64,000 nt of DNA from Chloroflexota bacterium (GCA_040752025.1 JBFMFR010000027.1:6082-70081), one strand, 5' to 3'; positions 8,509 through 48,265 are shown, numbered from the stretch's first letter. The notes: generated by a model from the letters alone, not told the origin. Numbers and translations: made by a program.

Positions 8509-10404
8509 TTATGGCTGCGGCATGGTCACAAAAGGCGAGGTAAGCTCACAAACAGAGATGTTATCGAAGAAGAACATCGCTTTGGCACCCTCACGTAGAT
8601 GCGCTTCCAGGCCAATCGTTCCGGGAGGCAGCGGCTGGGGATCGGTGTAGCTGAAGAGCTTTTTACCATTCAGCCAGACCTCTGTAACGCCTTCGAAGGT
8701 GCTGATCTCGAAGAAAAACCACTTCTTGTTGCTCAGCTTGGCCACGCTCTGCGCCACTGGAGAGCCGCCGTTGGTAAAGCGCACCATGTTGATCTGCCAA
8801 TTTCCTCCGACTGGCACGAAATAACGCCAATCGCCCTGTTCGAAGGAGTGCCGCCAGTTCAGGAAGAGATCCGTGTCCTGACCGGTGACCATGAGGTGCA
8901 AACGCCAGACTGCATTGTCGAATGTGAAGCCCTGCAGATCATCGTTGGCGGGCATGAGGCCATTGGCAGCTTGCAAGAGCAGGTTGGCGTTCTCGGCTTC
9001 ATCGGGGAGAATGGCCCAACCGTTCTGGGCGTTCAGATCGGCGGCGGCGCTGATGTTGGGCCAACCCTGGGCCTTGCCGTCCTGGAAATCTTCGCTGTAG
9101 AGCAGGGTTTCGCCTGGCGCGCAGGCCTGCTCGGGCAACAGGCCGAAGGGATCGCGCTCCAGAATGATGGTTTGCTCGATGAGCGTATCTTTCTGCAGGC
9201 TGACCTTCTGTTCTACCGCCCGGTAGCCCATGGCGCCGACCTGCAAGGTGGCCTCCGCGCCTGGCAAATCAGTCCAGCTAACCAGGCCCTTTGCGTCACT
9301 GACCTGGCTGGCGTTATCCGCTTCTCCCAATTCCGCCATCACGACCGTGGCATTCGGGATAGGATTCCCTTCCGCGTCCAGGACGGTCACATTCAGATCA
9401 AAGCCGGTTTTCGGGCGCGGCATAGGCTGCATGGGCGCAGCCAGTTCGCACACGACGATGTTATCGTAATAGTGAACCACATCCCCTTCGAAGTGGTTTT
9501 CCAGGGCAATGGTGCCAGCCTCCCAGGGCTGCGGGTCCTGGTATTCCATACCCTGCTTGCCATCGATGTAGATGCCCAGCATGCCATCGAAGAGGCCGAC
9601 TTCTAACAAATGCCAGCCATCCCCCGCATAGCGGCCAGCCGGTCCCAAAGGCATGCCCTTTTCCTGAATATTGCGGTTCAAATCAGCAGCGCCTCCGCCA
9701 ACAACTACCATGTAGCGCGCTTCACCGGGTACAAGACGGAAATTAAAGATGGTTCTTTCACCATCCATGAATTTGAAGCGCACACGCCAAACGGCGTTCT
9801 GGAACTGGTAATACTGGGGATCGAGCACCGCCCATTCAACGCCTTTGCGCGCCGAAAGCACCTGGTTGCCCGGCTGGTCAGGATCGGCCTCTACCTTCCA
9901 ACCGGGGGCAGAGGCCTCGAGGCTGTCCCAACCCTGGGCCAGGCCATCCTGAAAATCCTCAATGTAGAGCAGTTTCTCACCGGGAGCGCAGGCGTTCTCG
10001 GGCAGCAAGCCGTCTGGGTCGGGCTGCATTACCAATGCGGCCTGGTTATCACCGGGCTGCAAATCCTGGGCGGCATCCTGCGCGAAGTACCCTGGGGCGG
10101 TAACCTGGAGCGAGGCCTGCCCGGCTTGCAAACCGGAGAAGGTCGCCAGGCCATCCGCGCCGGTAACCTGGCTGGCTTCGCCCAGGGTAACCGTTGCCCC
10201 AACCACTGGCCCACCGTCCGGATTGGTGAGCGTCACTTCCAAAACCACTGGCAGCGGCGTTGGCGTGGGAGTGGGAGGTGGCGCCGTTGGAGGCAATGCG
10301 GTAGGCGGCTGTGTAGCGGATGTGGTGGCCTGGCCAGGTGAGCCGCAGGCACCCAAAGTTAGCGCCAAGATCACCAGCAACGAGAAAACGGGTTTAGTGC
10401 TCAT
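8509..10404 (-). CDS. Lipoprotein with duplicated carboxypeptidase-regulatory-like + concanavalin/LamG-like modules
   Basis: LGAC lipobox, Pro/Thr linker, two copies of 'GLLPE.ACAPGE.LLY.EDFQDG.AQGW...DNI.VCEL'. Confidence 0.75.
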   Translation of the reverse strand: MSTKPVFSLLVILALTLGACGSPGQATTSATQPPTALPPTAPPPTPTPTPLPVVLEVTLTNPDGGPVVGATVTLGEASQVTGADGLATFSGLQAGQASLQVTAPGYFAQDAAQDLQPGDNQAALVMQPDPDGLLPENACAPGEKLLYIEDFQDGLAQGWDSLEASAPGWKVEADPDQPGNQVLSARKGVEWAVLDPQYYQFQNAVWRVRFKFMDGERTIFNFRLVPGEARYMVVVGGGAADLNRNIQEKGMPLGPAGRYAGDGWHLLEVGLFDGMLGIYIDGKQGMEYQDPQPWEAGTIALENHFEGDVVHYYDNIVVCELAAPMQPMPRPKTGFDLNVTVLDAEGNPIPNATVVMAELGEADNASQVSDAKGLVSWTDLPGAEATLQVGAMGYRAVEQKVSLQKDTLIEQTIILERDPFGLLPEQACAPGETLLYSEDFQDGKAQGWPNISAAADLNAQNGWAILPDEAENANLLLQAANGLMPANDDLQGFTFDNAVWRLHLMVTGQDTDLFLNWRHSFEQGDWRYFVPVGGNWQINMVRFTNGGSPVAQSVAKLSNKKWFFFEISTFEGVTEVWLNGKKLFSYTDPQPLPPGTIGLEAHLREGAKAMFFFDNISVCELTSPFVTMPQP

Positions 10405-36627: not shown

Positions 36628-38475
<1,848 letters not shown>

Positions 38476-38657
38476 AAATCTTTCCTTTGTTACGAACCAG
38501 CAAAGACCCCGACCACTGCGGGCCGGGGCCGATAAGTACGAAAGGAGATTGTATCAGAAGGTATCGGGATTGAGAAGAGGTGAGATTCCGCCTCTTCCAG
38601 ATAGCGTTTATTAGACCCGGCTCAGGCGCAGCCAGCACCCTACCTGGTCCCCCCAAC

Positions 38658-38735
38658 AAAAAAGCGGCCTCCCGAGTGAGGGGGGCACCCGGGAAGCCGC
38701 AACCAAATTCTACTAAATCTACATCCAAAAGTCAA
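38658..38735 (-). ncRNA. Candidate ~45-nt hairpin sRNA (copy 2) with promoter TTGACT-N17-TAGAAT
   Basis: Promoter 38735-38707; RNA from ~38700: GCGGCUUC-CCGGGUG-CCCCCCU-CACUCGG-GAGGCCGC-UUUUUU. Confidence 0.65.
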
Positions 38736-38826
38736 GCAATTCCCTTACCACTCAGACAATTTGAGATAAGGAGCCGCTTGAGGGTCAAGAAATGGGCAAA
38801 AATAAATCGCAAAGGTGAGCTATAGA

Positions 38827-39228
38827 TTATCCGTTACGAGGCAAAATATTAGAAATTTTTAGAGCCAACATTCCAGCAATCATTCTTTTTGCCCCTTTAG
38901 ATAAATCATCACGATAAATAATGTTCCCATGATATGGATTGACACCTTCAATCGGTTCTCTATTGCAAACAATGGCGCCCGGAAGTGTCGGTGCACTAAT
39001 CACTTCTTGGATTCCTGAATAAGGTAATCTAGCAACTCCGTATTTGAATTGGTATTCCCCATCTTTTCTCTGTTCAAAAGTAAAATCAAGAACGTGTTGA
39101 TCGTCCTCCCAATTAATAGATATGTTCGATCCATGTTGTGGATAAAACAAGTCAGATGAAATTGCACCTTCAGGTGTTATATTTGTACTGTTATAAATGC
39201 CACGAAGACAATTGCTAGGGAAACACAT
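38827..39228 (-). CDS. Hypothetical protein, possible ADP-ribosyltransferase-like toxin
   Basis: 'LRGI...F...SINW...NPYHGNI' pattern; TAATG coupling to upstream gene. Confidence 0.5.
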   Translation of the reverse strand: MCFPSNCLRGIYNSTNITPEGAISSDLFYPQHGSNISINWEDDQHVLDFTFEQRKDGEYQFKYGVARLPYSGIQEVISAPTLPGAIVCNREPIEGVNPYHGNIIYRDDLSKGAKRMIAGMLALKISNILPRNG

Positions 39229-39821
39229 TAAGTTGTTATCCGTGGATTCGAAGTTATTAGGCTAATTAACCATTTTATTGGGAGATTTACTTTTTTGCAA
39301 AACAACTTACCATAAGCGTTTATATTTCCAGCAACATCGTTCGATACCAAGAACCAACTTGAATCCTCAATAATAGGTTCAATACTGAGGCCGAGACGGA
39401 GATTTGGAAAAATCCATTCGATAAGTAGAGATTTATCTTCCGACTGGATGGCGCTGAAGTTAGGTAGGTAACTAATGTTTATTTGCCTACTGAGTTGCTC
39501 ATTTATCTCGTTTAGAACGAGAACTGCTGTTTGAGCTTGTTTCTCATTTTCTAGGGAGCGGGCAACCTCTCTGGCAGTTTTTGTCAAGTCCCTACTATAA
39601 CCAACAATTGAATCGATATAGTTCCCCAATTCAAAGGAAGATGTTCCGCTTGTAGAGGTGGGTATGAGACGATCTAGCCTTGTAATGTATTTCCTTGGAT
39701 AATCATGAAACCGTTGAAAGGACTCTATATTTGTGGTGATGTATACTAATTTTGTAGGCCTATCCGGTGAATATGCCTCTGTTTTTTCCAGATCAGCGTC
39801 TAACACTGTTTGTGTACTCAT
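39228..39821 (-). CDS. Hypothetical protein (middle gene of TIGR04255 cassette)
   Basis: ATGA coupling; Ser/Thr-rich N-half, folded C-half 'LLIEW.F'. Confidence 0.65.
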   Translation of the reverse strand: MSTQTVLDADLEKTEAYSPDRPTKLVYITTNIESFQRFHDYPRKYITRLDRLIPTSTSGTSSFELGNYIDSIVGYSRDLTKTAREVARSLENEKQAQTAVLVLNEINEQLSRQINISYLPNFSAIQSEDKSLLIEWIFPNLRLGLSIEPIIEDSSWFLVSNDVAGNINAYGKLFCKKVNLPIKWLISLITSNPRITT

Positions 39822-40606
39822 ATTGCTTCCGGCTCCATTGCATCACGCAAGCGATCTGTTATACACCACTGGAAAAGACAACTACCTTTCTGATTAAAAT
39901 AATCGAGTTGCTCCGTTGCTTTGGATACATCAAATTTACCTTCAATGAAAAAGTCGTTGTCGATCCGATAGCAAGCTTCCCCTGTGCTAGCAGCCTCGAT
40001 CAAGCCATCCCTGATCCTAACTATGCTTACGCTATCCGATAGCCGTATTTCTGTTGTATGTGATGTTCCCAAAACATGATCGGCAATATTTGGTTCACTC
40101 AAACTGCCTACAATATATGGATTTAGAAGATCAGACCAGGGGATGTTATCTACACCAATTACAGAACGTTTAATTGTGTTAACATATCGTAATCCGATCC
40201 TTGTAAAAAAGCTGGGTTCATATACTTCTAACAGAGCAGCAAGAGGCTTTGCAAAATGGGTCTTGAATTCTTCCCAGCGAGTATATTGTGATGTGGATAC
40301 GGCCAGAAAGCTATTGGTGAGGTTTATCTTCCATGTTTCGTCTTCTGATATAAATTCATAATTCTTAGAGCTACCACTTGGCAATTCTAGCAATTCTTGG
40401 GGGATAGCTGCTTTTAGTTCACTAGGCAGATTAAATTTTACTTCAAGTCTTTCACCAAAGAGTGGGTATTGTTTTCTGATAGCTTCTTGAAATTTTGATG
40501 GGAGCTCGTTGTCGATGGACAATATTGGTGGAAAGCGAAATTGGCAGATAACAGGATCTAACGGATTTTTATTGAATATAATTCGCTGGCAAGGTGGAAA
40601 TGGCAT
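39818..40606 (-). CDS. TIGR04255 family protein
   Basis: 'NPL..VICQFRFP', 'Y.RWE.F', 'RIGLRYVN', 'IDND', 'F...IT'. Confidence 0.8.
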   Translation of the reverse strand: MPFPPCQRIIFNKNPLDPVICQFRFPPILSIDNELPSKFQEAIRKQYPLFGERLEVKFNLPSELKAAIPQELLELPSGSSKNYEFISEDETWKINLTNSFLAVSTSQYTRWEEFKTHFAKPLAALLEVYEPSFFTRIGLRYVNTIKRSVIGVDNIPWSDLLNPYIVGSLSEPNIADHVLGTSHTTEIRLSDSVSIVRIRDGLIEAASTGEACYRIDNDFFIEGKFDVSKATEQLDYFNQKGSCLFQWCITDRLRDAMEPEAI

Positions 40607-40931
40607 AGTTGCCTCCCATGTATTTTCCGGGCTTAGACAACATCCGGTTTTTCCGAATATGTGATGGCGAAGCTTTTATAGGACTACTAATTGACGATAA
40701 ACCAAATGCTATTATTTGCTTCTGTGATTTTATTATACCGAGAAAACTTTGGAAATAAATGAGAATGAATGGAGTTATCCATAAATGCTTGAGATCGTTT
40801 AGTTATTATCGAAAGCATAAAGGACCAAAAATGTTCTATGATACCGAAATTCTATTAAATCTACATCCAAAAGTCAACTCCCTTACCACTTTTGCCCATT
40901 CTGTACTAAAATACCCCTATCACAACCGAAC

Positions 40932-41030
40932 AAAAAACCTCGCCCAGGATACCGCCTGGCGAGGCACGGCCTCAACGTGGTGGGACGCATCGGCAGCCTG
41001 AATTGTAACCCAAGCGCCCGCCCTCCGCAA
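40932..41030 (-). ncRNA. Candidate ~65-nt sRNA with own promoter and terminator
   Basis: TTGCGG-N17-TACAAT (41030-41002); terminator CCTCGCCAGG-N6-CCTGGGCGAGG-TTTTTT. Confidence 0.45.
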
Positions 41031-41104
41031 GAGGTCCCAGGCGCTATTTTTGTTATTCTCAATCGTAAATTCAGAAATTCATGGTTGATAGATGGAAGAG
41101 AAAA

Positions 41105-41797
41105 ATGGATCCTAAACTTCAAGAAATACTCTTGGAATTGATTGTTAATATCGTAAGCATCATCCTGGGCGGTGGAATTATCATGATGATAATTGAATGG
41201 CGTCGTCATCAAAGAGAACAGCGCAAATGGGAGCGCGAAGATCGGTTGATAGAGATAGATATTCCTCGTGCAGATATGTCTTATTCCACTTGGCAATTCC
41301 GGGAAGAAATGTCTGATGGGGAAAAATTAAACATCTATGAAAACAATTTGGAAGATACTATAAGATCAATGCTCGTTATAGTAGAATTCGTGATCCGCAA
41401 TACTACAGGGTCTGAAATTATTATAACAAAATATGATGTTATTCTGATTCAAATTCCTCCAGGAGATGAGACTAAGCGTTTTTATGATCTTGAAACGGCT
41501 GACCTAATATCAGTGCAGGATATCGGCCCCGTAAAACTCTCCCCTTACGCTGTAATTGCTAGAACAGCTATTGTGGTGAATACATTTAGTAAAAATAGGA
41601 GACTTGAAACGCCGCCATCTGCGCTAGCTGTTATCGTAACTACAAGTAGTGGAAATGTATTGCAAGGAACAGCCAGCTTAAGGATAGTAAGAGGGGTTCC
41701 TGACGATATCAAAGTTTATCAAGAAGAACTTCATTTGAAAAAATATATACAGAAAATTCAAACTCACTCCGATAACTTTAATGATATCCCCTTTTAG
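41105..41797 (+). CDS. N-terminal TM + beta-rich domain, C-terminus NFNDIPF
   Basis: Hydrophobic N-terminal stretch, AT-rich coding; same strand as and directly upstream of the RT. Confidence 0.7.
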   Translation: MDPKLQEILLELIVNIVSIILGGGIIMMIIEWRRHQREQRKWEREDRLIEIDIPRADMSYSTWQFREEMSDGEKLNIYENNLEDTIRSMLVIVEFVIRNTTGSEIIITKYDVILIQIPPGDETKRFYDLETADLISVQDIGPVKLSPYAVIARTAIVVNTFSKNRRLETPPSALAVIVTTSSGNVLQGTASLRIVRGVPDDIKVYQEELHLKKYIQKIQTHSDNFNDIPF

Positions 41798-41876
41798 CTA
41801 TTTATCTTGACTCTATATTTTATAGCTTGGATATTGCTTCGGTTTCCACTAACAGTTCTTAAAGAGTAGAGAGAAT

Positions 41877-43520
41877 ATGCCAATTCACGAGCTATTAGAT
41901 CTGAAAAAGGCTTTTCGTCGAGTGATGTCTGATAAACACGATGATACATGGCCTGACGTTGTGGGATATCGAGATTATTCGCTTCGACTTGATGAAAACT
42001 TAGGTTATCTGTCTTCTCAGTTAGAGCATCCTGGCTCATATAGAGCCAGCCTACCTCTAGGAATCGATTTGCCCAAAAAGGGGTTTACACTACGTCCAGG
42101 TGTAGTACCTCTAATAGATGATCGAACGATCTATCAAGCAACAGCAGATTTCTTGTCACCCCATTTCCGCACTGAAGCATGTGTTTTTAGTAATCAATTA
42201 TCTAGCCCTGAATCCTCACGAATGTTTTTGCCAGGTGTTGATCTATGGTTAGGATTTCAGGCTGAGGAAGAGAGACTTTGTGCAAATTTCCCTTTTGTAG
42301 TACAAACTGATATTACAGCATATTTCGAACATATTAGCCATGATTTATTATTACATCGAATTGATGATTTATTTTCTTCTCGTGTTGATCGAACAACTTT
42401 GCGGGAAATAAAAATAATACTACAGCGTCTTTGGATGCGTTGGAACAGATCTCGAAATCGTTTTGGAATACCTCAGGTAAATGATGCCTCATCATTTTAT
42501 GCAAATCTTTACTTGGATGAGCTAGATAAGTGGATGCTTAGACATAATTATACTTTCTTGCGTTATGTTGATGATATGCGTATATTTACCAGAGACGAAC
42601 CCAGTGCTCGAAGAGCCTTGGCAGAATTAATTACTCAGTTGCGTGAGATGGGATTATATGTCGCTTCAGCCAAGACCAAAATTCTGGATACAGCATCAGT
42701 GCTGGAAGAGATGATTCTAGGTCATCAAAGAATGGATGCGATAGAAACTGAACTAAGATCTAGAGATCCGAGACGTTTACAAGGTGCAGCTTCTCTTCTA
42801 GAAGATTTTGCAAACGAACTCATTAACTCTCCTGAACAATTTAATGACCGACATTTCCGATACTGTGTGAATCGGTTTAAGAAGCTTCGTGTCAATGGTT
42901 TAGGGGCAGCTACCCATGACCGTATGGTGATCGAAGTATTAGAGCGATTGAAGGCTATGCCCTACTCTACTGACATATTTGTAGATTACTTATCTTTGTT
43001 CCCAGATCATGATGTTATGCAACAAAGCATCCTTGAGTTTCTGGAAGGTCCCTACAACATATATCCTTGGCAGGAGATGCTGTTGTTAGAGTTGTTGATC
43101 CGTTGCCAGATTCCAATCCAATTTCTCGAACGGACCACGAGACTTGCACGCTCATTTGCGCTTGATAACTGGCAACATCCTGCATGCAGGGCCAAGGCAT
43201 ATATTTTGTGGGGAAAGATTGGCGATTATGCAGACAGAAGAGAAATTAGAGCACGTTATCACGATGAGGAAAGAGAAGATGTGCGTCGTGCCATTCTTGC
43301 AGCTATTCAGGAAATGCAGATCGGTGAACGTAATCACTTTTATGAAACCGTCTTGGTTGATTCGAGAGCTATCAATTACACAACCCGATATATTCAGACC
43401 CTTCCAAGACCCACTTACCATTATTTCAATCCTCCCAGAGGCTTCGAAGTAGAAGAAATCGAAGCTTTTGACATCTCGGATGATATAGATGAATTAAGTA
43501 GTGAAGATTTTCTCTATTAA
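41877..43520 (+). CDS. Reverse transcriptase, UG/Abi (defence-associated) type with helical C-terminal domain
   Basis: 'PKK...RP', 'TDITAYFEHI.H', 'GIPQ....SS..ANLYL', 'RYVDD', 'KT'; no maturase/HNH domain, no retron VTG motif. Confidence 0.9.
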   Translation: MPIHELLDLKKAFRRVMSDKHDDTWPDVVGYRDYSLRLDENLGYLSSQLEHPGSYRASLPLGIDLPKKGFTLRPGVVPLIDDRTIYQATADFLSPHFRTEACVFSNQLSSPESSRMFLPGVDLWLGFQAEEERLCANFPFVVQTDITAYFEHISHDLLLHRIDDLFSSRVDRTTLREIKIILQRLWMRWNRSRNRFGIPQVNDASSFYANLYLDELDKWMLRHNYTFLRYVDDMRIFTRDEPSARRALAELITQLREMGLYVASAKTKILDTASVLEEMILGHQRMDAIETELRSRDPRRLQGAASLLEDFANELINSPEQFNDRHFRYCVNRFKKLRVNGLGAATHDRMVIEVLERLKAMPYSTDIFVDYLSLFPDHDVMQQSILEFLEGPYNIYPWQEMLLLELLIRCQIPIQFLERTTRLARSFALDNWQHPACRAKAYILWGKIGDYADRREIRARYHDEEREDVRRAILAAIQEMQIGERNHFYETVLVDSRAINYTTRYIQTLPRPTYHYFNPPRGFEVEEIEAFDISDDIDELSSEDFLY

Positions 43521-43566
43521 CAAGGGGAAGTAATGGGATCACTTAGATACCCTCCGGAGAGACTTT

Positions 43567-44304
43567 ATGGAATTTGAGGAAACACTGAACCCAAGAATCA
43601 AGAAGCATTGCTTGCCTTTATGGCAGGATGGGTATTACAGACATGCTGCCCACGAATCTATGATACAAGTAGAGAATGCCTTAAAGGAGAAAGGTCTGGT
43701 TTCAGAGAAAAACAAAATTTATGGCCGCACGCTGATAAAAAGACTCCTCGATTCTAGTGGGAAGGAAAAATCTGTTAAACTACGTGTACCCTTAGGCGAG
43801 GATTTACAACAGCAAGCGAAAAACTACTTCGAGGGTGTTTTCGGATATTATAGGAACTATACTGCTCATGATGGTAGCAAAATAGATAAACCCATCAGCG
43901 CCCGCATTATGATCATTGCGTGCGAGTTGTTAGATCTGATTGACGCCTCAAACCTGAGTTTTACTGATATTGGTGGTATTGATGGTTTATTAGAACTGGG
44001 TGCATTTTCCAGCAAGCAGCAAATCTATGATGTGCTGGTACATTTGGAGGCGCAATATCTACCTGATGGAATGACCGACGGTTTACTTGAAGAGCTTTTT
44101 GAAAAGTTCGGGGTCGATGAGACAGAATTCTTCGCCTTATTTGATCTGGGATTGGTATGTTTTGTGGAAGAGGATTATGCTCCCTCACGAGAGGAATGGT
44201 TAGCAGTTTGGCAGAATTCTTCACCGCCTCAAACACTCGCTCATTTTGAGATAACTGATCTGGGCCAACAATTCCTTGATGAAATTTCGGCTGCCTCAAG
44301 TTAA
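43567..44304 (+). CDS. TIGR02391-like HEPN protein with C-terminal winged-helix-like domain
   Basis: 'G.Y..AA.E....VE..L', RxxxxH motif 'RNYTAH', C-terminal 'EITDLG..FL'. Confidence 0.7.
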   Translation: MEFEETLNPRIKKHCLPLWQDGYYRHAAHESMIQVENALKEKGLVSEKNKIYGRTLIKRLLDSSGKEKSVKLRVPLGEDLQQQAKNYFEGVFGYYRNYTAHDGSKIDKPISARIMIIACELLDLIDASNLSFTDIGGIDGLLELGAFSSKQQIYDVLVHLEAQYLPDGMTDGLLEELFEKFGVDETEFFALFDLGLVCFVEEDYAPSREEWLAVWQNSSPPQTLAHFEITDLGQQFLDEISAASS

Positions 44305-44442
44305 ATTAAACAGTGTCACATTGACCGTAGTAACGATTCAATTCTGCCTCGGCATGGTTTGGCTGGCCTCACCAACCTATTCAAACAACTTTCTCCCTAC
44401 CCTATTGTTCTTTCTGGCTAAAAAGATAATTTGGAGTGTGCT

Positions 44443-45294
44443 ATGAGAAAAATAATTAAACAGGTTGACCCGATCTTGCTTATAGGCATAACAATCTCAA
44501 TACTGATCTCAGTAATTCTCGTGTTTGTTGGGCAAGATGAAGTTAATAGCCTTTTGGTTGGTTTAGTACTTACTACAATTACTCTTATCATCGATGGTTT
44601 CACCCGAATTAAAGAGGTTGAAAGGAATACGATTCAAGCATTAGGATTAGAAGAATCACTAACTAAATACCCATTTTTATTCTCGACCTTATTCCAAATA
44701 GCGAAAGATTATGAAAGTGTAAGAAATCTCGAATTTGATTTTTTTAAACACGGAGCTGATGATGTTCTCTTAGATTGTCGTAATACTATTCATAGCTTGG
44801 CTGAGCAAAGAATAGAAGTGGGGTTAGAGAATAATCTTGCTTACGGACGTCAAGGGATTCATGATGCTCAAAAAAGCCTTAAGGCAGTTGCTTATGCCGA
44901 ACCTTCTTTTTGGAAGACAAAATATGCAGATTTTTACTTAGAATCAAATGCTCAGGCTGTTGCACGTGGTGTTAAATTTACACGAATATGGCTTTACGAT
45001 GTAAAGACTTTAACAGAATATCAAGAAATCTTGCAAAGGCAAGTGGATGTGGGGATTCGTGTTTTGATAGCTTACCCTGATAGAGTTCCAGACCATATAC
45101 TAGATGATATTCTTCTCGTTGATGATAAGGTTCTCGCCAGGTTGGTACTAGATGCAAATGGGAAAGCAAAATCCCAGATAGTAACCATTGACCCAATAGA
45201 GATTGAAAAAGCAATGCAAAAATTCACTTTATTGGAAAGATATTCTCAAACTTATAGTGAGTTCTTAGATTATATGAACAAAAACAAAGAATGA
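44443..45294 (+). CDS. 2TM + DUF6879-like (PLD-like fold) protein
   Basis: Two N-terminal TM helices; 'W....Y...N..AV.RGV...RI...Q...GI.V...D.LLVDD'. Confidence 0.6.
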   Translation: MRKIIKQVDPILLIGITISILISVILVFVGQDEVNSLLVGLVLTTITLIIDGFTRIKEVERNTIQALGLEESLTKYPFLFSTLFQIAKDYESVRNLEFDFFKHGADDVLLDCRNTIHSLAEQRIEVGLENNLAYGRQGIHDAQKSLKAVAYAEPSFWKTKYADFYLESNAQAVARGVKFTRIWLYDVKTLTEYQEILQRQVDVGIRVLIAYPDRVPDHILDDILLVDDKVLARLVLDANGKAKSQIVTIDPIEIEKAMQKFTLLERYSQTYSEFLDYMNKNKE

Positions 45295-45466
45295 TTTTTA
45301 CAGAGCACTTTTGCGAGCGAACTCTAGTTCCACTAGCTGGGCTTTCACCTGAAGGATACGCGGCGCAAAAAGCCAAGCTTGAGGCCAAAACCTGATCCTG
45401 ATTTATTCAAGAAACCTGAAATTGCCCAATCCGTTCTCGAACTATAAAATCACCACCCTTCCTCCC

Positions 45467-48265
45467 ATGCCCTGGCCCCCCACCCTCACCCGCCTCCAAT
45501 CCCTCCTCGCCGAGCTCTACCCCCACGGCGAAGACACCCGCCGCCTGGCCACCCGGGCCAACCTGCCCCTGGCCAACCTGCACCTGGAAGGACCGCCGAT
45601 CCGCAACTGGCACAGCCTGCTCAACCAGGCCATCCGCCACCAGCGCCTGGAGCCCCTGCTCGAAATCGTCAGCAGCGAATACCCCGAGCACCTGGCCGAA
45701 GCCCTCCAAGAGTTCCGGGCTTACCTCGCTGCCGGCGCAGCGATCCAGGTGGAAGAAGAAGAACCGACCCACCCCGCTTCAGCCGTCAGTGTCGGATCTA
45801 TCTCGCACACCTCCGGCGGCCAGGTCAACATCGCCGGCAGAGATGTCAACGTTTACCCCATCTCTCCCCTGCCCGCCTACCAACCCCCACCCCTGCCCCC
45901 CTCCGACAGCCTCCCCGACCCCGCCGCCTTACCCCCCGCCTCGCGCCTGCCCTTCCCGCGCAACGCGGCCTTCACCGGGCGCCTGCCCGACCTGCAAAGC
46001 CTGGCCCGGCGCCTGTTCTACGCCCAGGCAGGCCCCCTGGCCATCACTCAAAGCCTGTCCGGCATGGGCGGCATCGGCAAGACCCAGCTCGCCGTCGAGC
46101 TCGCCTACCGCTACGGCCAGTTCACCCACGGGGTGCACTGGCTCAACGCCGCCCAGGACCTCGACGCCGAAATCGCCGCCTGCGGCCTGGCCATGCAGCT
46201 CCAGCCCTGGCCCGACGAGCAGCCCAAGCAAGTCGCCCTCACCTTGCAGCGCTGGCAGGCCCAGCCCCAGCGCCTGGTGATCCTCGACAACCTCGATGAC
46301 CCCGCCCTGCTGCAAGCCTGGCTGCCCCAGCTCGGAAACACCCGCATCCTCGTCACCACCCGCCTGGCCAGCCTGCCCCGCACCCTGCAGATCGACCTGC
46401 ACCGCCTGGACTGCCTCAAGCGCCCCGAGAGCCTGGCCCTGCTGCGCAAACTGGCCCCGCGCCTGGAGCGCCTGCCCGACCCCGAGCTCGAGCCCCTGGC
46501 CGAGCGCCTGTGCGACCTGCCCCTGGCCCTGCACATTGCCGGCACCTACCTGGACAAGCGCCCCGGCCTGACCCCCGCCGCCTACCTGGGCGAGATCGAG
46601 CAGGCCGGCGGCCTGGTGCAGCACCAATACCTGCCCGAGTCGCTGCGCGAGCGCACCCCCACGCAGCACGAACTGGACCTGTATGCCACCTTCCGGGTGA
46701 GCTGGAACTACCTGGACGCAAACGACCCCCTCGACCAGGCCGCCCGCCGCCTGTTCCTGGCCGCCGGCTGCTGCGCCCCCAACACCCCCATCCCCGTGGA
46801 AATCTTCAGCGCCCTGCCAGACGCCGGCGAGCCCGACCTGCCCCTGGCGCGACTGGCCGGCCTGGGCCTGCTGAACGCCGAGCCGCCCCTGATCCACCCC
46901 CTGCTGGCCGAGTTCGCCGGCGCCCTGGATCAGCAGGGTGAAACAAGCGCCCTTCCCGCCCTGGCCGATGCTTTGGTCGATCTGTCCTACGAAGCCAACG
47001 CCAGCGGTTTCCCGGCGCGCTTCACCCCCTTGCGCCCGCACATCGCCCGGGTGGCCGATCTGGCCGTGAAGCAGGGCCTGGAGAAAGCCGCCGCCCTCCT
47101 GGGCAACCTGGGCTTCCACCTCCAGGCAGTCGCCGACTACCAGGCCGCCCGCCCCTACTACGAGCAGGCCCTGGCCATCCGCCGCCAGGCCCTGGGCGAG
47201 GCCCACCCCAACACCGCCACCAGCCTCAACAACCTGGGCTCCCTGCTGCAAGACCTGGGCGAACTGCAAGCCGCCCGCCCCTACCTGGAGCAGGCCCTGG
47301 CCATCACCCGGCAAGCCCTGGGCGAGGCCCACCCCGACACCGCCAGCAGCCTCAACAACCTGGGTCTGCTGCTGCAAGCCCTGGGCGAACTGCAAGCCGC
47401 CCGTTCCTATCTGGAGCAGGCCCTGGCCATCACCCGGCAAGCCCTGGGCGAGGCCCACCCCGACACCGCCACCAGCCTCAACAACCTGGGCTCCCTGCTG
47501 CAAGACCTGGGCGAACTGCAAGCCGCCCGCACCTACTACGAGCAGGCCCTGGCCATCTACCGGCAAGCCCTGGGCGAGGCCCACCCCGACACCGCCCAAA
47601 GCCTCAACAACCTGGGCCTGCTGCTGCAAGACCTGGGCGAGCTGCAAGCCGCCCGCCCCTACCTGGAGCAGGCCCTGGCCATCCGCCGGCAAGCCCTGGG
47701 CGAGGCCCACCCCGACACCGCCAGCAGCCTCAACAACCTGGGCTCCCTGCTGCAAGACCTGGGCGAACTGCAAGCCGCCCGCCCCTGCTACGAGCAGGCC
47801 CTGGCCATCCGCCGGCAAGCCCTGGGCGAGGCCCACCCCGCCACCGCCAGCAGCCTCAACAACCTGGGCTACCTGCTGCGCGCCATGGGCGAACTGCAAG
47901 CCGCCCGCCCCTACTTCGAGCAGGCCCTGGCCATCTACCGGCAAGCCCTGGGCGAGGCCCACCCCGACACCGCCACCAGCCTCAACAACCTGGGAGGACT
48001 GCTGCAAGCGACGGGCGAACTGCAAGCTGCCCGCCCCTACCTGGAGCAGGCCCTGGCCATCACCCGGCAAGCCCTGGGCGAGGCCCACCCCGACACCGCC
48101 CGCAGCCTCAACAACCTGGGCACTCTGATGTACGATCTGGGTGATTTACCCGCTGCTCACCGCTACCTGGAGCAAGCTCTGGCCATCTTCGAGCAGGTTT
48201 TGCCCCCTGGTCACCCCCATATTCGCCTCGTCAAGAATAGCCTGCACTTCCTGAACGAAACATAA
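45467..48265 (+). CDS. NLR-like STAND protein: EAD1 + NB-ARC + 9 TPR repeats
   Basis: EAD1-like 'L..LLA.LYP...W..LL..A...L..LL.....EYP'; 'FTGR', 'GMGGIGKTQLA', 'LVILDN', 'LPLAL'; 42-aa repeats. Confidence 0.9.
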   Translation: MPWPPTLTRLQSLLAELYPHGEDTRRLATRANLPLANLHLEGPPIRNWHSLLNQAIRHQRLEPLLEIVSSEYPEHLAEALQEFRAYLAAGAAIQVEEEEPTHPASAVSVGSISHTSGGQVNIAGRDVNVYPISPLPAYQPPPLPPSDSLPDPAALPPASRLPFPRNAAFTGRLPDLQSLARRLFYAQAGPLAITQSLSGMGGIGKTQLAVELAYRYGQFTHGVHWLNAAQDLDAEIAACGLAMQLQPWPDEQPKQVALTLQRWQAQPQRLVILDNLDDPALLQAWLPQLGNTRILVTTRLASLPRTLQIDLHRLDCLKRPESLALLRKLAPRLERLPDPELEPLAERLCDLPLALHIAGTYLDKRPGLTPAAYLGEIEQAGGLVQHQYLPESLRERTPTQHELDLYATFRVSWNYLDANDPLDQAARRLFLAAGCCAPNTPIPVEIFSALPDAGEPDLPLARLAGLGLLNAEPPLIHPLLAEFAGALDQQGETSALPALADALVDLSYEANASGFPARFTPLRPHIARVADLAVKQGLEKAAALLGNLGFHLQAVADYQAARPYYEQALAIRRQALGEAHPNTATSLNNLGSLLQDLGELQAARPYLEQALAITRQALGEAHPDTASSLNNLGLLLQALGELQAARSYLEQALAITRQALGEAHPDTATSLNNLGSLLQDLGELQAARTYYEQALAIYRQALGEAHPDTAQSLNNLGLLLQDLGELQAARPYLEQALAIRRQALGEAHPDTASSLNNLGSLLQDLGELQAARPCYEQALAIRRQALGEAHPATASSLNNLGYLLRAMGELQAARPYFEQALAIYRQALGEAHPDTATSLNNLGGLLQATGELQAARPYLEQALAITRQALGEAHPDTARSLNNLGTLMYDLGDLPAAHRYLEQALAIFEQVLPPGHPHIRLVKNSLHFLNET
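47093..48230 (+). repeat. Intragenic tandem array of ~9 x 126-bp TPR units
   Basis: Near-identical 'gagcaggccctggccatc...gccctgggcgaggcccaccccgacaccgcc...agcctcaacaacctggg' units. Confidence 0.92.

Follow-up and report, generated by a model that had tools for sequence, protein, structure and literature searches.

Four co-oriented genes of a Chloroflexota bacterium, encoding a transmembrane (TM) protein, a reverse transcriptase (RT), a HEPN protein and a protein with two transmembrane helices (2TM), are probably independent defense-type genes that accumulated, together with a separate three-gene module, in a composite, horizontally acquired low-GC island, and not the parts of one system. They lie in a window of 64,000 nucleotides (GCA_040752025.1 JBFMFR010000027.1:6082-70081), that is, the whole stretch of DNA analyzed, to which all coordinates refer. 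The first-pass annotation of this window had offered two alternatives: a new multi-gene DRT-like system coupling the RT product to a HEPN or membrane effector, or independent defense genes stacked at a hotspot. Because no partner was found in the loci of RT relatives (see below), a stack of separate defense genes is probable, and this second alternative fits the data better. The analysis itself establishes the gene structure, the families, the folds and the missing co-occurrence; the enzymology and the roles in defense are predicted.

Organization of the low-GC island

The composition profile and the GC content of individual genes delimit a horizontally acquired island of 6.8 kb (38700-45400) with about 35-42% GC, against 67-70% for the flanking host genes. 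On its left lies a typA-like GTPase gene on the minus strand (36628-38475; GC 0.669). On its right, at host GC and outside the island, a plus-strand gene (45422-48265; GC 0.697) encodes a STAND NTPase of 947 aa, in which Pfam recognizes a weak EAD1, NB-ARC and TPR_10/TPR_12 repeats. The four genes of interest span 41105-45294 on the plus strand and, with the starts chosen below, are separated by gaps of 79, 46 and 138 nt; their GC values are, in the order TM, RT, HEPN and 2TM, 0.378, 0.407, 0.423 and 0.353. The ORF list and the GC values therefore bear out the co-oriented low-GC run described at first pass.

The separate module occupies the minus strand (38827-40606; ORF list), and encodes a TIGR04255-family protein (39818-40606; NCBIfam E 5.9e-47), a 197-aa ORF (39228-39821) and a 133-aa ORF (38827-39228), the latter two without a family match in Pfam, PADLOC and NCBIfam profile searches. 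Its genes overlap at their junctions, whereas the plus-strand genes stand 46-138 nt apart. A repeat search and reading of the sequence revealed that the module is bracketed by a direct repeat of 48 nt (identity 97% over 31 nt and 94% over a further 16 nt), with its left copy at 38705-38752 and its right copy at 40847-40890, both on the plus strand. Between the module and the plus-strand genes sits a GC-rich, hairpin-rich element (40871-41060, plus strand), identified through an own-genome DNA search and alignments as a repeat that is dispersed in the host genome and recurs on contigs C100, C115 and C82 (81%, 70% and 78% identity, respectively). The promoter scan places a promoter-like site in it at 40883-40912, and it also has a hairpin with a T-run that resembles a terminator; it is not common to the RT relatives. 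The earlier remark that no obvious noncoding RNA adjoins the RT holds for Rfam, no family of which matched at E <= 1 in the scanned region (38000-46000), but not for this hairpin-rich element upstream. Given the direct repeat around one module and the host repeat between the two, we consider the island composite.

No plus-strand terminator was predicted by the scan between the four genes, which, together with their co-orientation and similar GC, makes co-transcription and a shared origin possible. The same features, and the short gaps, speak for one lineage-specific Class 1 DRT system, in which the RT would sense infection or make ssDNA, the winged helix of the HEPN protein would read the RT product or state and free the RNase, and the membrane protein or proteins would serve as effector or anchor. 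We judge such a system unlikely: the genes are not translationally coupled, and the distribution of their relatives, described further on, argues against it.

The reverse transcriptase

The RT gene (41877-43520, plus strand) encodes 547 aa with a YVDD motif, a predicted helical C-domain and an acidic C-terminal tail. Judged from its sequence, the protein is a Class 1 UG/Abi enzyme, as first proposed. It matches Pfam RVT_1 (E 8.4e-16) and, over residues 5-507 of 547, the PADLOC profile RT_UG21 (E 8.3e-88, 293.3 bits), which is the closest profile, although the UG21 label follows profile scores and not a reference phylogeny, and UG9_small scores nearly as well (260.1 bits, E 1.1e-77; UG32, 200.9 bits). 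The UG21 profile spans the C-terminal half of the protein, and matches to Abi-P2 and AbiK run past the palm to residues 390-404; the AbiA profile covers the RT core only (residues 127-331, E 7.2e-15). The catalytic motif is intact, with Y230, V231, D232, D233 and also D145 unchanged across 27 aligned relatives. Searches of Pfam, PADLOC and NCBIfam gave no family match for a HEPN domain inside the RT, and hydrophobicity revealed no membrane segments in either the RT or the HEPN protein.

Among the RTs compared, those of group II introns match the fingers and palm by far the best (E 1.4e-25), ahead of Abi-P2 (4.7e-8), AbiK (1.3e-7) and DRT4 (1.4e-6). An identity as a group II intron, retron or DGR enzyme was considered and rejected, there being no Rfam match and the RT scoring below the curated family cut-offs (group_II_RT_mat, 102.5 bits versus 300; retron_St85_RT, 24.6 bits versus 235). 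The first-pass annotation had likewise seen no hallmarks of these elements.

The nearness to group II intron RTs bears on a further reading, in which the RT belongs to a mobile retroelement or is carried by an IS200/IS605-type element, and the low-GC island is a mobile-element remnant with no role in defense. IS200-type Y1 transposase genes or fragments do adjoin the RT in three relatives (L005, L006 and L086), and the gene acts as a mobile low-GC single-gene cassette: in the contexts of the 21 close relatives (43-63% identity), it is often the sole low-GC gene amid genes of host GC (e.g., 0.38 versus 0.54-0.56 in L004, and 0.38 versus 0.50-0.55 in L007). We nevertheless regard this reading as very improbable. 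The Rfam scan gave no intron RNA, the maturase model scores far under its cut-off, the best full-length match is a UG/Abi profile, and neither the ORF list nor Pfam places a transposase or integrase in the window's island. Moreover, the neighbors of the relatives are typical of defense islands. A UvrD-type helicase gene lies directly downstream of the RT in 8/21 close relatives and directly upstream in 1/21, and further neighbors include methyltransferases, a DUF4145 HEPN gene and the IS200 transposase genes.

The acidic tail of the RT, pointed out at first pass, is conserved in style (DSDD[LI]xDL...) and probably serves in regulation or recognition. The terminal Tyr noted with it shows no such conservation: among the 90 relatives with 535 aa or more, 28 have Y as their last residue, which weakens the idea of priming from this residue. 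We suggest that the RT would act alone, like other Class 1 enzymes. By analogy with AbiK, Abi-P2, AbiA, DRT4 and DRT6, it would probably be oligomeric and make protein-primed, template-independent ssDNA, and would answer a signal from the phage, for instance the phage's ssDNA-binding protein, with abortive infection. The available text of two reports describes protein-primed, untemplated ssDNA synthesis as the Class 1 mechanism, the activation of DRT4 by phage SSB proteins, and the dependence of other Class 1 enzymes on their C-terminal regions (10.64898/2026.10.21.760695; 10.64898/2026.10.27.754916). The RT domain is itself much nearer in sequence to the RTs of group II introns, which calls for caution; we infer untemplated synthesis from the class to which the enzyme belongs.

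The HEPN and membrane proteins

The third gene (43567-44304, plus strand) encodes a 245-aa protein that is a Ymh/TIGR02391-type HEPN domain, with the motif RNYTAH, fused to a C-terminal winged helix (Pfam, alignment and AF2 model, pLDDT 86.5). It exceeds the cut-off for Pfam Hypoth_Ymh (PF09509; E 4.1e-13, 49.7 bits, cut-off 25) and falls under that for NCBIfam TIGR02391 (34.2 versus 39.45 bits). Residues R96, N97 and H101 are unchanged across 24 family sequences. With VIA-align, residues 8-127 match the HEPN structures 1ufb (Z 9.1, rmsd 3.2, 100 aligned), 2hsb (8.6) and 1wol (8.5), values of a size common among helical domains, and the HEPN domain of AbiA is also among the matches (8oz7, Z 7.1); residues 136-245 match winged helices (Z 6.6-6.1). 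The original HEPN call thus stands on the profile, the invariant R96 and H101, and the structural matches. The family is conserved, about 240 aa in length, and comprises 145 proteins at E <= 0.001 among 848 candidates. Contexts were seen for two of its members (G112 and G643), and for none of the TM or 2TM family. Both lie amid small paired ORFs that, read from their translations, resemble toxin-antitoxin genes, with no match to the RT or to the TM or 2TM family. The gene for the HEPN-winged-helix protein probably works by itself, as an RNase toxin or an Abi gene.

The first gene (41105-41797, plus strand) encodes a 230-aa single-pass protein with an N-terminal TM helix, an Ig-like beta-sandwich, a C-terminal helix and a final acidic stretch that closes with DIPF; the ORF opens at 41081, and the start at Met 41105 was taken from relatives. 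The hydrophobic segment predicted at first pass is present at residues 4-32, and is followed by a basic stretch which suggests that the domain is cytoplasmic. The AF2 model (pLDDT 87.4) found generic beta-sandwiches only in Foldseek. We found 36 relatives among 1.84 billion representatives, and the family turned up in none of 400 other genomes of the phylum. In its alignment P229 and F230 are unchanged, and among the relatives of 220-310 aa the last residues are IPF in 20/24 and [ILVF]PF in 23/24, with acidic residues before. The window protein ends in ...NDIPF and the SSB of the same genome in ...SDDIPF. At the sequence level, the family's acidic ...(D/E)IPF tail is therefore a match to the C-terminal tip of the genome's own SSB; the available text of PMC10143822 describes IPF as the part of SSB to which its partners bind. 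The SSB-like tail may matter because DRT4, a Class 1 RT, is triggered by phage SSBs.

One could pair the TM protein with the RT only, the tail in the cytoplasm being a tethered decoy or sensor for proteins that dock on the SSB C-terminus, and the TM protein modulating the RT. Besides the conservation of the tail, its likeness to the host SSB and the putative cytoplasmic domain, such a pair would agree with the SSB activation of DRT4, the C-terminal dependence of Class 1 enzymes, the acidic tail of the RT itself and the gap of 79 nt between the two genes. The TM family, however, occurs in 0/160 RT loci and in 0/400 other genomes of the phylum, no longest-contig size is common to its members and the RT relatives, and the 79-nt gap holds a promoter-like site (such sites are no commoner here than in shuffled sequence). 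A TM-RT pair is, in our view, quite unlikely. We give similarly little credit to a wider version, in which the TM protein is a membrane-tethered SSB-tail mimic working with the RT, and possibly with the HEPN and 2TM proteins, as a rare lineage-specific system. If this were true, an SSB-tail bait for host or phage SSB-docking proteins, together with RT-made ssDNA, would license RNA cleavage or membrane damage.

The fourth gene (44443-45294, plus strand) encodes a protein of 283 aa that has two TM helices at its N-terminus and, at its C-terminus, a DUF6879-like domain. The ORF opens at 44431; GGAG precedes the ATG at 44443, and the database copy has 283 aa. Both helices predicted at first pass fall in a hydrophobic stretch at residues 4-56. 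The DUF6879 likeness, also proposed then, is just below the Pfam cut-off (PF21806, 22.6 versus 23.9 bits) but finds support in the ESM Atlas (feature score 0.98, TM 0.60 to a DUF6879 cluster), and the sole relative found carries PF21806. In the stacked reading, which we prefer, the two membrane proteins would be separate genes.

The gene set is thematically coherent, with precedents for RT, HEPN and TM genes and an SSB-like tail encoded beside an RT, an observation that runs counter to a mere stack.

Distribution of relatives and comparison with known systems

The loci inspected around RT relatives numbered 160: species genomes offered 231 and metagenomes 319, and from each set the best 80 were taken. 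In tblastn searches, the six other island proteins gave no hit in these loci at E <= 0.01 outside their own genome. Among their 7040 ORFs (1,302,352 bases), HMMs of the HEPN and TM families matched none, and that of the 2TM family gave one marginal match (E 0.013). Neighbors that fail to co-occur across RT homologs had been named beforehand among the outcomes that would refute a single system; in the 160 loci they do not co-occur. The new multi-gene system proposed at first pass thus finds no support. Elsewhere, members of the RT family stand alone; conversely, the HEPN family is without RT in both contexts seen, and a full-length member is present in 0/4 genomes holding close RT relatives.

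The closest homologs lie outside the inspected contexts, at 65-71% identity for the RT (contigs of 1.8-4.1 kb), 75% and 66% for the HEPN protein and 54% for the TM protein. The nearest database relatives stand at 71% (RT), 75% (HEPN), 54% (TM) and 30% (2TM) identity, which is unexpected for a block inherited together. No longest-contig size is common to the 119 RT relatives and the 119 HEPN, 14 TM or 2 2TM relatives; the sole size shared between any lists, 1216 nt (HEPN and TM), is too short for both genes.

Among known systems, the RT most resembles UG21, its best full-length profile match, in its length (about 545 aa), YVDD motif and RT plus predicted helical C-domain. The available text of Mestre et al. 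2022 (PMC9226505) assigns UG21, which has HEAT-like repeats at the C-terminus, to Class 1 and names no associated gene, in agreement with the lone RT gene of the relatives. The acidic tail and the frequent UvrD-helicase neighbor are not described for UG21 in that text, and no experimental test of this described group was found in the available literature.

With the single-gene Class 1 enzymes DRT4 (UG15), AbiK and Abi-P2, the RT shares its class and, as predicted, its overall architecture, Abi-P2 and AbiK matching to about residue 400, and from them comes the model of protein-primed ssDNA, SSB-type triggers and C-terminal dependence that it would follow by analogy. In sequence it resembles them weakly (E 1e-6 to 5e-8), and the RT domain is far nearer to group II intron RTs.

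A Class 1 RT beside a HEPN RNase recalls AbiA, which has a HEPN domain in cis, and, in the available text of PMC9226505, UG22, UG23 and AbiA variants whose partners are HEPN genes or genes for small TM proteins (SLATT). These precedents, and the structural match to the AbiA HEPN, would favor one system. Here, in contrast, the HEPN is a separate Ymh-family gene with a winged helix, absent beside the RT relatives in the 160 loci. It shares with the Ymh HEPN family (PF09509/TIGR02391; Anantharaman et al. 2013, PMC3710099) the Rx4H motif and the defense or conflict neighborhoods, and adds a C-terminal winged helix, the fusions listed in the available text being pMORC, AbiJ-NTD1 and AbiTii.

Finally, the TM family shares with bacterial SSB the C-terminal tip of acidic residues followed by IPF. 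The TM protein has no OB fold, unlike SSB; its model is instead a membrane-anchored beta-sandwich, with a putative role in binding SSB partners.

Composition and assembly of the low-GC island

The composition profile delimits a low-GC island at ~38700-45400, in which individual genes have GC values of 0.353-0.423, as against 0.669 for the typA-like flank and 0.697 for the NB-ARC/TPR STAND gene. On the plus strand, the ORF list gives a TM protein (41105-41797; a longer ORF starts at 41081, but relatives begin at the Met at 41105), a UG/Abi-type reverse transcriptase (RT) of 547 aa (41877-43520) and a HEPN protein of 245 aa carrying the motif RNYTAH (43567-44304), followed by a 2TM protein (44443-45294; GGAG precedes its ATG, and the database copy has 283 aa). 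The ORF list reproduces the gaps of 79, 46 and 138 nt reported by the first-pass annotation, and its observation of a four-gene run is confirmed. A 947-aa STAND NTPase (45422-48265) abuts the island at host GC, with NB-ARC, many TPR_10/TPR_12 repeats and, at its N-terminus, a weak match to EAD1 (E 1.6e-4) that lies below the cut-off.

The same island holds a minus-strand module of three genes with overlapping junctions (38827-40606), the first belonging to the TIGR04255 family (E 5.9e-47) and the other two being ORFs without a known family. This module is enclosed by the two copies of a 48-nt direct repeat (38705-38752 and 40847-40890), as if it had been inserted separately. The right-hand repeat copy runs into the 5' end of a GC-rich, hairpin-rich element (~40871-41060; ~150-175 nt), which sits between the module and the four plus-strand genes and has both a promoter-like site and a hairpin resembling a terminator. 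Three further contigs of the genome carry copies with 70-81% identity to it (C100:177-361, C115:2417-2587 and C82:2364-2446), two copies lying at most ~230 nt from contig ends. Aligning the four copies revealed compensatory change in just 1 of 34 predicted pairs; the predicted fold of 40890-41080 does not stand out on either strand (z -1.69 and -0.86), Rfam returned no family, and blastn of the 300-nt RT flanks from the window and 20 close relatives did not find the element to be common to RT relatives. The element firmly ties the island to its own genome, and its position suggests that the island arose through two or more independent insertions. A second short low-GC stretch is present in the same genome (C82:5328-6777, locus L183), ~3 kb from another element copy, with ORFs of 162 and 246 aa at GC 0.46 and 0.38.

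An integron-cassette origin was considered and gained no support, inspection by eye revealing no attC-like inverted repeat in the three intergenic stretches. Among the nearest genomes compared for an empty site, TypA identity is only 74-78%, and the single genome of the same family gave no match. For 40800-45400, no sequencing runs and no RNA holder were listed.

The reverse transcriptase and its genomic neighbors

The RT contains Pfam RVT_1, and its residues 5-507 match the PADLOC model RT_UG21 (E 8.3e-88), the next best being UG9_small (1.1e-77). At E <= 1e-10 we collected 122 relatives, mostly close to 545 aa in length and with identities of 42-71%. None of the catalytic residues, YVDD included, varies among 27 aligned sequences. 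UG21 has been put in Class 1 on account of its HEAT-like C-terminal repeats, and the portion of that study available to us names no partner gene for it (Mestre et al. 2022, PMC9226505); in the partial texts of the literature examined, we found no experimental test of UG21. Among solved structures, group II intron RTs are the best match for the RT core (E 1.4e-25). The E-values for Abi-P2, AbiK and DRT4/UG15 range from 4.7e-8 to 1.4e-6, and the similarity to the Abi proteins continues past the palm domain to approximately residue 400. Because the resemblance to group II intron RTs is the stronger, the RT may yet use a templated mode of synthesis.

The family has a conserved acidic C-terminal tail, DSDD[LI]xDL..., with a hydrophobic end. 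A terminal Tyr is kept in just 28 of 90 near-full-length relatives, and is therefore unlikely to be the priming residue. The tail motif (window RT and its database relatives P0002-P0060) is similar to the acidic residues that precede IPF at the end of the host SSB (...ADSDDIPF), and one RT subclade ends in ...DDLPMPSP instead. Relatives in viral contigs and plasmids are distant: four in viral contigs, at 26-30% identity, and plasmid matches all below 31%. All-against-all blastn of the 300-nt flanks of the window RT and 20 close relatives identified conserved blocks inside subclades, and no conserved ncRNA candidate common to the window.

The first-pass annotation had proposed either a new multi-gene DRT-like system, coupling the RT product to a HEPN or membrane effector, or independent defense genes stacked at a hotspot. 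We examined 160 RT-relative loci, namely the best 80 of 231 relatives confirmed in species-representative genomes and the best 80 of 319 from metagenomes. With tblastn, the six other island proteins had no match at E <= 0.01 in these loci outside their own genome. Profile HMMs of the HEPN and TM families found nothing in the 7040 ORFs (>=50 aa, 1.30 Mb) of the loci, and that of the 2TM family gave one marginal match (E 0.013). As a rough test of co-location, "longest contig" lengths were compared: the 119 RT relatives had none in common with 119 HEPN, 14 TM or 2 2TM relatives. One value, 1216 nt, occurs for both HEPN and TM relatives; it is too short for both genes and comes from different sources. 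Complex prediction pairing the RT with TM-protein residues 40-230 reached a median score of 0.25, against a mark of 0.32, and gave no answer in either direction. With its partners missing from the RT-relative loci examined, the multi-gene system is unsupported by the comparative evidence at hand, which favors the stacked-genes alternative; on balance we lean towards separate defense genes, with some confidence.

In the 21 close RT loci, at 43-63% identity, a low-GC RT gene often stands alone amid genes of host GC (e.g., 0.38 versus 0.54-0.56 in L004 and 0.38 versus 0.50-0.55 in L007). A UvrD-type helicase lies directly downstream in at least 8 of the 21 and directly upstream in at least 1, these counts being minima because several contigs stop no more than a few hundred bases from the RT. 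They derive from blastp clusters, with Pfam or PADLOC confirmation for L004, L005, L007, L009, L086 and L098. With a GC content like that of the host and matches to generic UvrD models, these neighbors may simply be resident genes. One or two UvrD-type genes adjoin the RT relatives of L004, L005, L007, L084-L086, L097, L098 and L009; the RT is sandwiched by two helicase paralogs in L004, L005 and L085, and upstream of both in L098. In three loci, IS200-type Y1 transposase genes or fragments adjoin the low-GC RT gene (L005:5308-5748; L086:5330-5791; L006:5294-5854 and 8975-9331), which hints that the RT cassette may have been moved by IS200/IS605-type elements. Other close loci have methyltransferases or a DUF4145 HEPN gene nearby.

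The HEPN, TM and 2TM proteins

The HEPN protein matches Hypoth_Ymh above the Pfam cut-off, and NCBIfam TIGR02391 just under its own. Ymh is described, in the part of the source available, as a HEPN family whose motif is conserved and whose genes occur both solo and in restriction-modification neighborhoods (PMC3710099). Of 848 candidates, 145 proteins belong to the family at E <= 0.001, the 120 listed being mostly of 230-250 aa; all 24 sequences of an alignment keep R96, N97 and H101. The AlphaFold2 model (pLDDT 86.5) has two domains. VIA-align matches the first, residues 8-127, with HEPN structures (Z 9.1 to 8.5; AbiA HEPN domain, Z 7.1) and the second, residues 136-245, with winged-helix domains (Z 6.6-6.1). 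Such Z values are common among helical domains, so the HEPN call is based on the motif and the Pfam match; Foldseek against the PDB gave no match at E <= 0.001. The family is sparse: 3 of 401 genomes of the phylum, own genome included, have a match, with only one other full-length, and a second phylum has matches in 5 of 401 genomes, only one of them full-length. Both full-length cases sit among small paired ORFs whose translations read as toxin-antitoxin-like, with no RT, TM-family or 2TM-family match nearby, and no full-length member was found in four genomes with close RT relatives. No relative was detected in viral contigs, nor any match in plasmids. Most simply, this HEPN-winged-helix protein would be a self-contained RNase toxin.

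The TM family, of single-pass membrane proteins, is rare, with 36 relatives among 1.84 billion representatives, none in the 400 other genomes of the phylum searched, and no match in plasmids or phages. In the model (pLDDT 87.4), an Ig-like beta-sandwich lies between a long helix at the N-terminus and another helix at the C-terminus; Foldseek returned generic sandwiches for it. The tail consists of acidic residues and then IPF: among the 24 of 36 relatives with 220-310 aa (the rest are mostly fragments), 20 have IPF and 23 have [ILVF]PF. The SSB of the same genome, encoded at host GC, ends in ...SDDIPF, with the same C-terminal tip. SSB is reported to dock partners through its IPF tip, in the accessible text of PMC10143822. 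A basic stretch after the TM helix suggests that the domain and tail face the cytoplasm. The protein may be a membrane-tethered mimic of the SSB tail; a literature search of limited coverage returned no paper linking the SSB C-terminus with phage defense.

For the 2TM protein, a word-based search found one relative, at 30% identity, which carries PF21806; the protein's own Pfam score is just below the cut-off. ESM Atlas ties it to DUF6879 clusters (features 0.98, structure TM 0.60), and it is also similar to certain HTH and TrmB-type regulators in their C-terminal domains. Plasmids gave no match.

Comparison with characterized Class 1 systems

The locus cautions against over-reading gene order: what looks like a four-gene RT system is better seen, on the evidence, as an ordinary defense island around a stand-alone UG21-type RT. 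Its family provides three leads on UG21, namely the conserved acidic tail, the frequent placement beside UvrD-type helicases, and the apparent mobility of the RT, in Chloroflexi-type genomes, as a one-gene cassette of low GC. The SSB interaction hub is now central to phage detection by several defense systems, Class 1 RTs among them. If the TM family truly mimics the SSB tail, it would offer a new route to probe or exploit this hub.

The RT itself probably works as a stand-alone Class 1 enzyme. As far as the available portions of the sources describe them, characterized Class 1 members are hexamers making protein-primed, template-independent ssDNA, and in DRT4 the binding of phage SSB to this ssDNA and to the C-terminal domain activates the enzyme, turning on an RNase and leading to abortive infection (10.64898/2026.10.21.760695; 10.64898/2026.10.27.754916). 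Entirely by analogy with these enzymes, the UG21-type RT of the island could operate through the same Class 1 mechanism.
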